Positions 2,914 through 4,659 of a DNA stretch of 33,353 nucleotides are shown piece after piece. Origin of the DNA: a virus. Taxonomy: Duplodnaviria > Heunggongvirae > Uroviricota > Caudoviricetes. A program made the position numbers and the translations under genes. Each line of letters starts with the position of its first letter. Position 1 is the first letter of the stretch. The stretch lies in IMG/VR virus record IMGVR_UViG_2874951433_000004; one strand, written 5' to 3'. The notes below the pieces were generated by a model, which saw only the letters and a program-made list of their open reading frames with translations, had not been told where the DNA came from and ran no database searches.

Positions 2914-2999
2914 AGACGCTCTCAATAGCATTCTGACACAAAAAAGTAGTTGACCTGAAGAGGCCATTTAACTCGTTACAGAGCGATTGAAGAGGTCTG
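2914..2999. repeat. copy 1 of a paired-arm repeat (left arm agacgctctcaat.gcattct.ac.caaaaaa, right arm ctcgttacagagcgattga.gaggtctg, short spacer)
   Basis: Both arms recur at 4538-4659 with a longer spacer; the arms contain mutually complementary 8-9 nt cores (tcaatcgc / gcgattga). Confidence 0.5.
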
Positions 3000-3103
3000 T
3001 GTGCAATGCAATAACCATACGGCCATTCTCATAGACACGCTTCATATTTTACTCTCCCCATAAACCCATCATACCACAGATGTTAATGAAATGTTAAAAA
3101 TAC

Positions 3104-3132
3104 TTGACATTAGTCTTTGAAAATGCTAGTAT
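3104..3132 (+). promoter_or_regulatory. sigma70-like promoter candidate (TTGACA - 17 nt - TAGTAT) upstream of the 3181 operon
   Basis: TTGACA at 3104-3109, 17-nt spacer, TAGTAT at 3127-3132; AGGA at 3165-3168 ahead of ATG 3181. Confidence 0.4.
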
Positions 3133-3180
3133 TGTATATAAGTTAACAGAGAATTAACAATTATAAGGACTAGCTTATGA

Positions 3181-3735
3181 ATGAACGACAGAGAATTTAG
3201 AGCGATGCTTCAGGCATCAAGAGAACGCAACAAGCACAACTCCTACAGCTACACAAACTCCCCCACCAGCTACGAACTGCCAGCCTTTTCCAAAACCGAA
3301 CGTAAAAACATTGAAGCGGTCATTCGTAGCATTACACCACGGGTAAGACACATGCCAACACGCAAAGAAAAAGAGAACACTTTAAAGACTTTCCTGATGA
3401 GTTTTGATAGCTACGAACAATTACCATCACGAATTGAAGATATTATTATCGGAACTTGCCGTAATGCCGGAAGAGATAATTATCACCGAAAAGTTTTCTA
3501 TTTACTACGAAATATTGACAAGATTAGCTCAAGCACAATAACAAGTTATCTGCAGCGTCAAGCGACCCGATTAAGCCATGAGCTACCAAGTGATAAATAT
3601 TGCGCTAACTTAGCCACTATTTGCATGAAAGTTATTGAGACAATTAATCATCATGCGGAAGTGGGCAATATCAGCCTTACAACCAATGAACCAGACTTTG
3701 AATTTGACGTATACGCACAAGCAGAGGAATTTTAA
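3181..3735 (+). CDS. hypothetical protein, first gene of a four-gene operon
   Basis: ORF track 184 aa; promoter-like element upstream; next gene starts 2 nt after its stop. Confidence 0.55.
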   Translation: MNDREFRAMLQASRERNKHNSYSYTNSPTSYELPAFSKTERKNIEAVIRSITPRVRHMPTRKEKENTLKTFLMSFDSYEQLPSRIEDIIIGTCRNAGRDNYHRKVFYLLRNIDKISSSTITSYLQRQATRLSHELPSDKYCANLATICMKVIETINHHAEVGNISLTTNEPDFEFDVYAQAEEF

Positions 3736-3736
3736 A

Positions 3737-4024
3737 ATGAAAAACAAACACACTTTAACCCGTATTACAAAGACAGCCTTTGAAGAACTTAACCGAATCA
3801 AAAACATTACAGGTCTGCCACACTCAGCAGTGATGAAGCTTGCAATTAACCGTGATATTAACGAACAAGATTTGCTTAATAGTTGCTTAGAGGCTGCAAG
3901 ACACCATATCAGGATTAAGCAAGATGACCTTGATAGTCTGAAATCTTTAAATGCTTTTGGACTGGATTTAGCAAGGTTGCTAAGCATCAAAATTCACAAG
4001 TTAAAGTTAGAGATGGGGGTCTGA
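3737..4024 (+). CDS. putative small DNA-binding protein (ribbon-helix-helix-like pattern)
   Basis: ATG at 3737 in frame with ORF 3635..4024, AGAGGA 8 nt upstream; N-terminal short strand then two helices (TLTRI / TKTAFEELNRIKNITG / PHSAVMKLAI) resembles RHH regulators; assignment by pattern only. Confidence 0.4.
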   Translation: MKNKHTLTRITKTAFEELNRIKNITGLPHSAVMKLAINRDINEQDLLNSCLEAARHHIRIKQDDLDSLKSLNAFGLDLARLLSIKIHKLKLEMGV

Positions 4025-4239
4025 TGCTATGCGTTACCTTTGAATACCACACGGATAAAATGATTCGCTACATCTCCGACCTCCTGATTAAAGGAAACGG
4101 ATTCGGTGACATCCATAACTCAAAAGATATTTTCATTAAAGTCATTGGCCCAAATGAATCACTGAAAACAGCAGTTAAACCGGAATGGTTTGAGCGTCAC
4201 AAGATTGAATTAGGTTATTGGGGTGAGGAGGTTTTATGA
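4024..4239 (+). CDS. hypothetical small protein, translationally coupled (TGATG overlap with the upstream gene)
   Basis: ORF track 71 aa; start overlaps previous stop; its stop overlaps the next start (ATGA). Confidence 0.4.
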   Translation: MLCVTFEYHTDKMIRYISDLLIKGNGFGDIHNSKDIFIKVIGPNESLKTAVKPEWFERHKIELGYWGEEVL

Positions 4240-4523
4240 AACCTTGGCATGAAGATGTTAGACGATATTTTACAGAGCACCTTATCTATGATGAATCCAG
4301 TGATTCCCTGTGCTGGTCTGATGGAGAGTCAGTCACGATAAATACCGACGACTACGGCAACAAAACATTTAATATAGGCCGATACACTTTCTACGTGAAA
4401 TATGTTGTCTGGTTCCTTTATCATGGCTATCAATCCAATAAGCAAATTATCCATCGAAATGGTAACAGGGCTGATACCAGACCAAAAAATCTTATGCAAG
4501 TCCGAGACTTTAAGAGAAATTAG
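4236..4523 (+). CDS. HNH endonuclease-domain protein (phage HNH_3-like motif)
   Basis: ORF track 95 aa; C-terminal stretch YTFYVKYVVWFLYHGYQSNKQIIHRNGNRADTRPKNLMQV resembles the HRxVW...DHiNGn..DNR..NL signature of freestanding phage HNH nucleases, with substitutions. Confidence 0.5.
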   Translation: MKPWHEDVRRYFTEHLIYDESSDSLCWSDGESVTINTDDYGNKTFNIGRYTFYVKYVVWFLYHGYQSNKQIIHRNGNRADTRPKNLMQVRDFKRN

Positions 4524-4537
4524 AAAAACAGCTTCTC

Positions 4538-4659
4538 AGACGCTCTCAATCGCATTCTAACGCAAAAAAACTACCTTATTTTAGGGTGGGTAATACTACT
4601 GTACAGGCTACCCCTGAAAAAGACTGTTTAGCTCGTTACAGAGCGATTGAGGAGGTCTG
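4538..4659. repeat. copy 2 of the paired-arm repeat (same arms as 2914-2999, longer spacer)
   Basis: Left arm agacgctctcaatcgcattctaacgcaaaaaaa and right arm ctcgttacagagcgattgaggaggtctg; sits directly after the HNH gene stop (4523). Confidence 0.5.

Follow-up and report, generated by a model that had tools for sequence, protein, structure and literature searches.

The stretch of DNA analysed here (the window; 33,353 nt) is the virus record IMGVR_UViG_2874951433_000004, assigned to the Caudoviricetes, and it begins with an island (positions 1–9650) in which short intergenic repeat units, each made of two inverted arms and a spacer, stand on either side of a four-gene operon ending in an HNH endonuclease gene. 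An earlier note on this DNA had proposed that two such units mark the ends of a mobile gene cassette or, alternatively, that they are repeated terminator or regulatory RNA structures.

Anatomy and gene context of the repeat units

The two copies described in the earlier note are present with shared left and right arms. The left arm AGACGCTCTCAATNGCATTCT is found at 2914–2934 and 4538–4558 and the right arm CTCGTTACAGAGCGATTGANGAGGTCTG at 2972–2999 and 4632–4659; neither occurs elsewhere in the window, and no match to either arm was obtained in 100 dinucleotide shuffles with up to three mismatches tolerated. A repeat search aligned copies 1 and 2 over 38 nt at 87% identity and 42 nt at 86% identity. 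As reported, the spacers differ in length (~38 nt in copy 1 vs ~71 nt in copy 2) and the arms are complementary enough to form a stem, the two 26-nt arms of copy 2 being 77% mutually complementary. A relaxed search revealed a third copy, missed in the earlier note, at ~1640–1765 and inverted with respect to the other two. Copy 3 aligns with copy 2 across the long spacer, the homology including the spacer itself, and its helix lies in a shifted register in which GCTCTGTAGC pairs with GTTACAGAGC. Compared with shuffles, each of the three units folds better on at least one strand (z-scores of −3.3 to −5.2; −4 to −5 for copy 3).

1640–1765, minus strand: repeat copy 3, with left arm AGACGCTCTGTAACACATTCTAAGCG, a long spacer and right arm CTCGCTACAGAGC; orthologues in 29 loci
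2914–2999, plus strand: repeat copy 1, with the shorter spacer, located between the divergent promoters on one side and a small minus-strand open reading frame (ORF) on the other
4538–4659, plus strand: repeat copy 2, in the interval that separates the HNH stop codon from the ribosome-binding site of the 102-aa gene; the other loci contain 67 such copies
4532–4571, plus strand: left arm of copy 2, made up, as read from the sequence, of the four phased decamers CTTCTCAGAC, GCTCTCAATC, GCATTCTAAC and GCAAAAAAAC
4632–4659, plus strand: right arm of copy 2, an inverted and diverged decamer motif whose core CGTTACAGAGCG is the reverse complement of the copy-3-type arm

The units are 90–135 bp long, and each arm consists of 2.5–4 phased decamers (GCTCTnnAAC, GCATTCTAAC), the arms facing each other across the spacer. 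In the left arm of copy 2, a CGC triplet recurs every 10 bp, so that the CGCs would lie on one face of the helix.

The genes and promoter-like sites around the repeats are the following:

2654–2900, minus strand: small hydrophobic ORF of 82 aa, with an ATG at 2900, an AAGGAAA ribosome-binding site and a leader that includes copy 1; the ORF is conserved in other islands
3068–3097, minus strand: divergent promoter-like site, TTAACA, 18 nt, TATGAT, with TG
3104–3132, plus strand: promoter-like site of the four-gene operon, TTGACA, 17 nt, TAGTAT, with TG
3181–4523, plus strand: four-gene operon in which stop and start codons overlap, encoding 184-aa, 95-aa and 71-aa proteins and a 95-aa HNH_3 endonuclease
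4236–4523, plus strand: HNH ORF (HNH-95), subject to independent insertion or deletion
4681–4989, plus strand: 102-aa gene, the first gene of the right-hand module, always after copy 2

The operon corresponds to its earlier description: its last gene matches the Pfam family HNH_3 (1.8e-8), and its second protein (95 aa) appears by eye to be ribbon-helix-helix-like. The placement of the copies was also correctly described, copy 1 lying just upstream of the operon promoter-like site, whose −35 element is 105 nt past the end of the repeat, and copy 2 beginning 15 nt past the HNH stop codon (4521–4523). A transcript from the minus-strand promoter-like site at 3068–3097 would read through copy 1 into the 82-aa ORF. 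The predicted product of this ORF (MVNLPPEL...GLIAG...RVLVVFK...) resembles a small membrane protein and may be toxin-like or holin-like. Judging from the two promoter-like sites, transcription would cross copy 1 and copy 2 in opposite senses; the repeat unit itself contains no recognisable promoter.

Conservation and module junctions

Loci were sampled from E. coli, from IMG/VR and by a metagenome pattern scan seeded with the left arm; since the metagenome sample was seeded on the exact left-arm pattern, divergent arms are under-sampled in it. A profile search detected 133 copies in 97 loci, belonging to three classes:

c1, upstream of the operon: 37 copies
c2, upstream of the 102/107-aa gene: 67 copies
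c3, in the non-coding region, inverted: 29 copies

Island DNA is present in 217 of the 221 flanks, the remaining four corresponding to an island variant outside the reference set or to truncation, and the repeat family is therefore confined to one island, at three fixed sites, and is not dispersed. The mean pairwise identity of copy 2 is 0.95–0.99 vs 0.62–0.72 in the neighbouring genes, and that of copy 3 is 0.91–0.97 vs 0.55–0.75 in its flanks. For these two copies, the conserved block starts and stops sharply at the edges of the unit, and the non-coding modules of the island are conserved far better than any of its genes. Arm sequences hardly vary within a class (25–29 distinct trimmed variants per class); their substitutions are few and single, giving G-U on one strand or the other, and include no double or compensatory changes.

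Copy 2 is found at the border of a mosaic. At least three unrelated left modules precede it, namely the HNH-95 end, the module of locus L072 and the operon of locus L108, the latter encoding proteins of 340 aa (with a weak DnaD_N match), 98 aa, 106 aa (ribbon-helix-helix-like by eye), 76 aa and 73 aa. Since copy 2 remains unchanged behind these unrelated modules, its partner would not be a protein encoded by the island modules. Orientation is also free: copy 3 is inverted, and in loci L121 and L106, in which the HNH gene is absent, a copy-3-type unit occupies the copy-2 site in direct orientation. The modules are near-identical while their neighbours diverge, which makes them likely exchange points for recombination, as the mosaic junctions show.

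The reading that we favour, tentatively and at somewhat less than even confidence, is that the units are cis-acting double-stranded DNA sites for a conserved, putative trans-acting protein, and recombination linkers as well. The invariance of the arms, their helical periodicity, the free orientation of the units, their independence from island proteins and the occurrence of partnerless arms in T5-like phages (see below) together suggest sequence-specific recognition of double-stranded DNA. The three island-specific inverted-iteron modules, two direct and one inverted, would act as double-stranded DNA, and the putative binder would come from the host or from a helper phage instead of from the variable island modules. 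By their position, and by analogy with the units formed by inverted repeat (IR), spacer and IR in the T5 terminal repeats, the modules may mark or insulate an early or regulatory module, and they could be the points at which homologous recombination swaps neighbouring divergent modules.

Several observations weigh against this proposal. Our analysis identified no binding protein, and among the consensus sites of DnaA, IHF, LexA, MetJ, CRP and Tus, compared with the arms by eye, none fits. The spacer is conserved along with the arms, a feature that binding to two arms would not need. The good single-strand folds (z-scores of −3 to −5) and a consistent strand preference in alifold hint at RNA or single-stranded DNA. 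Single copies are dispensable, copy 1 being missing at about a third of the sites and copy 3 in loci L001 and L003. Homology with phages is limited to the arms, with a short stretch beyond them in some phages, and never extends to the whole unit, and the function of the T5 regions has itself only been hypothesised (Davison, bioRxiv 10.1101/866236).

The folds raise the rather unlikely alternative that the units are RNA hairpins, i.e., long, imperfectly paired stem-loops carried by the operon mRNA and by the leader of the small gene on the minus strand, with a role in processing or stability or acting as an attenuator, a terminator or an antisense-like RNA. All copies fold well, copy 3 keeps a 10-bp helix despite the shifted register of its arms, and alifold favours the same relative strand in each of the classes (−26 vs −16, −42 vs −36 and −36 vs −30). 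This preference arises only from the asymmetry between G-U and A-C, however, and the arms are invariant without covarying, single substitutions breaking pairs on either strand. On the favoured strand, the copy 1 inner hairpin followed by U6 is terminator-like, past the promoter-like site and just before the small ORF, and a T-run follows the related unit of a ColE2-type plasmid. This hairpin, on the minus strand, is the only terminator-like structure: on the operon strand, copy 2 is followed by GGTAAAAAGG and not by the U-tract of an intrinsic terminator. The opposite senses in which copies 1 and 2 would be transcribed, the presence of both orientations at the copy-2 site and the retention of the arm by T5-like phages that have no pairing partner for it also argue against RNA. 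A search with Rfam 15 covariance models gave no match in 800–5600, either at the gathering threshold or at E-values up to 5, and none in the T5-like or plasmid loci; sliding-window alifold across the non-coding region was uninformative, as sublineages do not align. The repeated regulatory or terminator structure proposed in the earlier note keeps some probability: the units fold well, but they have no U-tract on the operon strand and show no compensatory pairs. The decamers GCTCTnnAAC also resemble lambda-type boxA (CGCTCTTA or TGCTCTTTAACAA), but their two central positions vary and copies 1 and 2 would be read in opposite senses. Near copy 3, in the non-coding DNA at 1883–1894, TGCTCTTTAACG fits the first 11 nt of what we take to be the E. 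coli rrn boxA (TGCTCTTTAACAA).

The main proposal of the earlier note, that the two direct copies delimit a mobile HNH cassette of four genes, appears extremely unlikely. It had in its favour the position of two direct repeats on either side of the operon and the mobility of the HNH genes of the island. However, the operon and the repeats are separable. In loci L003, L004 and L010 the operon and copy 2 are present and copy 1 is precisely absent, and loci L007–L009, which have another 3′ half of the operon (a second HNH type of 90 aa, HNH-90, with a 128-aa gene, or the 128-aa gene alone), lack copy 2; the shorter hairpin that these three loci carry at the copy-2 site resembles, by eye, a degenerate inverted copy. 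Copy 2 conversely stands behind other modules, and the third copy lies outside the pair, so that the same repeats occur in related islands with no association with the cassette. A hybrid of the left flank of copy 1 and the right flank of copy 2, i.e., an operon-less island with a single repeat, was found in none of the 97 loci. For annotation, the repeats are best taken as marking module junctions and not transposon ends.

The mobile piece is the HNH gene by itself, as far as the compared sequences indicate, with borders away from the repeats. The HNH ORF corresponds to an indel of ~270 bp between the 71-aa gene and CCGAGACTTT, missing in L121 (2980–3215) and L106, and its final codons derive from the pre-existing intergenic sequence (CCGAGACTTT...). 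The presence or absence of this ORF alone between conserved flanks would fit a free-standing homing endonuclease gene, and the suggestion of a homing-endonuclease-style insertion can thus be kept for the HNH ORF and abandoned for the four-gene operon. HNH-90 is likewise present or absent, at another position in the island, and is lacking in L008. Among genome contigs, the HNH protein of the window was identified only in two fragments of E. albertii NBRC 107761 (L005 and L006), at 100% identity, and its best matches in E. coli are 85–93% identical. The DNA of the window may thus derive from E. albertii or a near relative of that species.

Three other types of recombination site were considered and rejected. 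The repeats do not fit resolvase or invertase sites for the small serine recombinase of some islands, a gene that is optional cargo and that the window lacks; collinear loci displayed neither inversions nor deletions between copies. Serine-integrase att-like sites are disfavoured by the lack of similarity between the repeats and the island ends in nhmmer scans. As for integron attC sites, the cores TTCTAAC and GTTACAG do not conform to RYYYAAC...GTTRRRY, and the island uses serine recombinases and not an IntI tyrosine integrase.

The arm motif in phages and plasmids and the host island

Searches of phage collections, near and distant, with the whole region 2600–5000 found nothing, and the homology of the arms emerged only from single-repeat queries at a permissive E-value. 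With copy 3 as query, T5-like phages were matched over 43 nt at 90.7% identity (E-value 2e-6; 323 records). The T5-like phage GreteKellenberger (L147) contains AAACGCTCTCAAACGCATTCTAACGC, of copy-2 type (23/24 nt), and AAACGCTCTGTAACGCATTCTAAGCG, of copy-3 type (24/24 nt), as well as a short inverted copy of the arm. These T5-like arms are single, with no hairpin partner, and two of the copies are direct repeats flanking a leftward-transcribed block of genes; we infer that they lie in the untranslated repeat regions that Davison described for the T5 terminal repeat. The motifs are accompanied, at a distance of tens to hundreds of nucleotides, by a perfect SOS-box-like palindrome (CTGTATATTTATACAG) and paired DnaA boxes (L147 880–1090 and 4810–5340; L142 660–850). 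In two contigs of 106 and 122 kb, an SOS-box-like palindrome is located 8–9 nt upstream of the motif and could overlap a −10 element.

In IMG/VR, a pattern scan located the motif on T5-like contigs as well as on contigs of 85, 94, 149, 221, 237, 245, 248 and 348 kb. The similarity continues into the flanks (CTAAA ... GCGGTTTT) for at least five or six of the latter eight, and the 248-kb contig fits copy 3 over 31 nt, the sequences being read by eye. A small MOBQ plasmid with a ColE2-type Rep protein (Pfam PF03090) has the same arm in an IR-spacer-IR unit located ~190 nt upstream of rep. No place in the phage collection covers 80% or more of the query, i.e., the complete unit was found in no phage. 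In a Felix-O1-like genome, arm matches are at chance level only, although this genome carries tandem GCTCTGTATA decamers. Phage EcSzw-2 (MH791400.1; L146/L145) has an exact 49-nt direct repeat containing tandem GCTCTGTATA at 1–49 and 3641–3689; these repeats enclose the first 3.6 kb of the record, which comprises small genes and non-coding DNA, a layout that recalls the T5 terminal repeat.

The presence of related arms in unrelated replicons raises the question of whether the units could be functionless palindromes, either non-autonomous mobile elements resembling miniature inverted-repeat transposable elements (MITEs) or products of gene conversion, that spread among islands, phages and plasmids. 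They are discrete, have inverted terminal arms, occur in both orientations at one site and are far more alike than their flanks. Copy 1 is moreover a precise indel of ~100 nt, its orthologous sites being filled in 36 cases and empty in 21 of 57, with two kinds of empty site, ...TTTCCTGTGTGC... and ...TACCTTCTGTGTGC..., and the same non-coding DNA displays many small hairpin indels with short flanking direct repeats. Against such an origin, the units are restricted to three fixed sites in one island family, with none scattered elsewhere, and their junctions show no clear target-site duplication, with an ambiguity of 1–4 nt (CT(T)GT). The island encodes no protein of a transposase family: the 236-aa protein labelled 'transposase' by PGAP has no match in Pfam, NCBIfam or PHROG, and its matches to solved structures are weak and unconvincing (best E-value 1.4e-4). 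The indels flanked by direct repeats are explained equally well by slippage deletion of hairpins, and the T5-like arms lie within the terminal repeat in most of the 323 records, suggesting vertical inheritance. We therefore regard a MITE-like origin as improbable.

The small hairpin indels of the other islands are 20–55 nt long, some of them nested, with short direct repeats flanking them, for example CTCATAG|TTGATTCG...|CTCATAG. In window coordinates they are located at ~1520, ~1644, ~2449, ~2501 and ~3024. Slippage deletion of hairpins could account for them, or they could form a second family of tiny palindromic elements. Around ~2552–2569, islands have between one and three tandem copies of a unit of 94–96 nt (TGGGTGATTACAACTTATTGAAAA...).

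The island that hosts the repeats has a G+C content of 34–46% in 1–9650, vs 50–59% across most of the remainder of the window. This region is matched in 468 of 5426 complete E. coli genomes (~9%), in a chromosomal location every time. Full copies are elements of ~11–12 kb that end in a large serine recombinase, which adjoins the genes annotated as tape measure and baseplate, and they occupy at least three insertion sites (yecE, yciI-tonB and yegS-yegR). Three features of the island outside the repeat-operon region are relevant here:

835–2653: ORF-free stretch of ~1.8 kb (no ORF of 60 aa or more) that holds copy 3 and is rich in WWACAG / CTTAACAG
6785–8755, plus strand: tape-measure gene (Pfam TMP_3), related to those of Ounavirinae
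8852–9625, plus strand: Dit-like gene (Pfam PF21821; phrog_3721 at 3e-129)

The Dit-like protein is ~70% identical to its counterparts in Ounavirinae (Felix-O1-like phages), with which the order of the tape-measure and Dit genes is also shared. HNH_3 aside, the other island proteins gave no family match in Pfam, PHROG and further scans; PADLOC matched no defence family, and no ParA or Rep family match was obtained among the proteins of the window. The WWACAG / CTTAACAG motif occurs 20 times on the plus strand of 835–3180 vs 3.4 expected, and 7 times on the minus strand (examples at 1102, 1505, 1810, 2073 and 3144). The same stretch of the island and the non-coding region of a Felix-O1-like phage have in common segments of 16–47 nt and CTTAACAG; the non-coding region 2720–3684 of EcSzw-2 is filled with the CTTAACAG motif and includes the identical 16-mers TCTTAACAGATGACTA and TTAAGAATCTGTTAAG. 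Judged only by its gene content and these shared non-coding motifs, the island looks like a satellite of virulent phages; limited literature searches retrieved no description of it as a phage satellite or as a satellite of Felix-O1.

In the window, the place of the serine-recombinase end is occupied by two insertion sequences (IS) of the IS3 family (9677–11888), so the island is truncated here and probably immobile. One of these elements carries a frameshift pseudoknot of the apical loop-internal loop (ALIL) type at 9958–10074, and the other lies on the opposite strand. The remainder, 12092–33353, is a degraded lambdoid prophage (RusA, Q antiterminator, and the tail genes Z, tape measure and J) with tRNAs for Met, Arg-TCT, Thr and Gly at 13314–13623 and an IS110-family transposase at 14321–15517. 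No repeat copy was found in this prophage part.

The phage-like content of the island allows one to imagine that the units mimic a DNA-handling signal of a helper phage, such as a packaging signal or an injection-stop or entry signal, for packaging or injection by a Felix-O1-like or T5-like helper, or for interference with it. The tail genes of Felix-O1 type and the stretches shared with the non-coding region of one such phage point in this direction, as does the location of the arm motif within the untranslated regions of the T5 terminal repeat that have been proposed to hold the injection-stop signal; strong conservation independent of island proteins would also suit a constraint imposed by a helper. 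Such mimicry seems unlikely to us, however: the complete unit occurs in no phage, the arm matches of the Felix-O1-like genome do not exceed chance, the motif is also present on a plasmid that is not packaged, and three copies per island would be odd for a packaging site. Mimicry of helper cos or pac sites was specifically rejected, the weak arm-like match in a Felix-O1-like gene upstream of terL being near chance and no link with a small terminase being apparent.

A wider hypothesis, possible though doubtful, is that the arms represent an undescribed phased-decamer motif of ~30 nt (CTAAA-ACGCTCTnnAACGCATTCTAA-SCG) common to unrelated replicons of Gammaproteobacteria, namely T5-like phages, the contigs of 85–348 kb, the ColE2-type plasmid and the island; this motif would recruit one conserved host factor as foreign DNA enters the cell or starts to be expressed. 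The paired copies of the island would exploit this step or compete for it against a helper, and the island itself would be a previously unreported satellite-like element made of Felix-O1-like and T5-like parts.

Comparison with known systems

The island units resemble the repetitive extragenic palindromic (REP) sequences, the bacterial interspersed mosaic elements (BIMEs) and MITEs in being imperfect intergenic palindromes of ~100 bp found in either orientation and polymorphic for presence or absence. They differ from them in being limited to a single island instead of dispersed, in having no REP-associated tyrosine transposase (RAYT) or other transposase present, and in their unrelated sequence. 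Promoter-early stem-loop (PeSL) cassettes, reportedly treated by Arbiol and colleagues in 2010, and the conserved boundary or linker sequences of modular phage genomes offer another parallel, these and the island units being short conserved intergenic hairpin repeats that border exchangeable modules, are conserved above their neighbours and are plausible substrates for shuffling. The island units nevertheless have no recognised internal promoter, number only three per element and show no sequence relationship with PeSLs of T4 type.

Iteron arrays are known at the origins or centromeres of plasmids and satellites, such as the ori and crr of P4 or the parC sites that flank a par operon. The island shares with them helically periodic tandem short repeats, both direct and inverted, located upstream and downstream of a small operon encoding a ribbon-helix-helix-like protein. 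The proteins of the island operon vary while the repeats do not, however, and the repeats therefore cannot be the cognate iterons of an initiator encoded by the island.

Within the T5 terminal repeats, conservation is higher in the 131-bp IR-spacer-IR units (IRCspacerIRD and IRD'spacerIRC') than in the ORFs, and an HNH gene is inserted between two of the untranslated repeat regions, for which an injection-stop role has been proposed, not shown (Davison, bioRxiv 10.1101/866236). Both systems combine paired inverted arms with a spacer (131 bp in T5, 86–122 bp in the island) in several copies and both orientations, kilobases apart, flanking small early genes; in both, conservation is well above that of the ORFs and an HNH gene has been inserted alongside. 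The T5-like regions even contain the arm sequence of the island (24/24 and 23/24 nt). They differ in that the IRC and IRD arms of T5 consist of paired DnaA boxes, with a spacer fixed at 52 bp, whereas the island arms, which contain no TTATNCACA box, correspond to the adjacent decamer motif and have a variable spacer of ~38–71 nt, and in that the island is an integrated element of ~12 kb whereas T5 is a phage with terminal repeats. An element of this size, found in roughly 9% of complete E. coli genomes with tail genes of Felix-O1 type and phage-like non-coding DNA, is worth experiment, especially as the core motif of its modules is common to the enigmatic untranslated repeat regions of T5-like phages, to other phages and to plasmids. 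If a single factor binds this motif, such binding would bear both on the long-open function of the T5 terminal repeat and on the ways in which satellites recognise or sabotage their virulent helpers.

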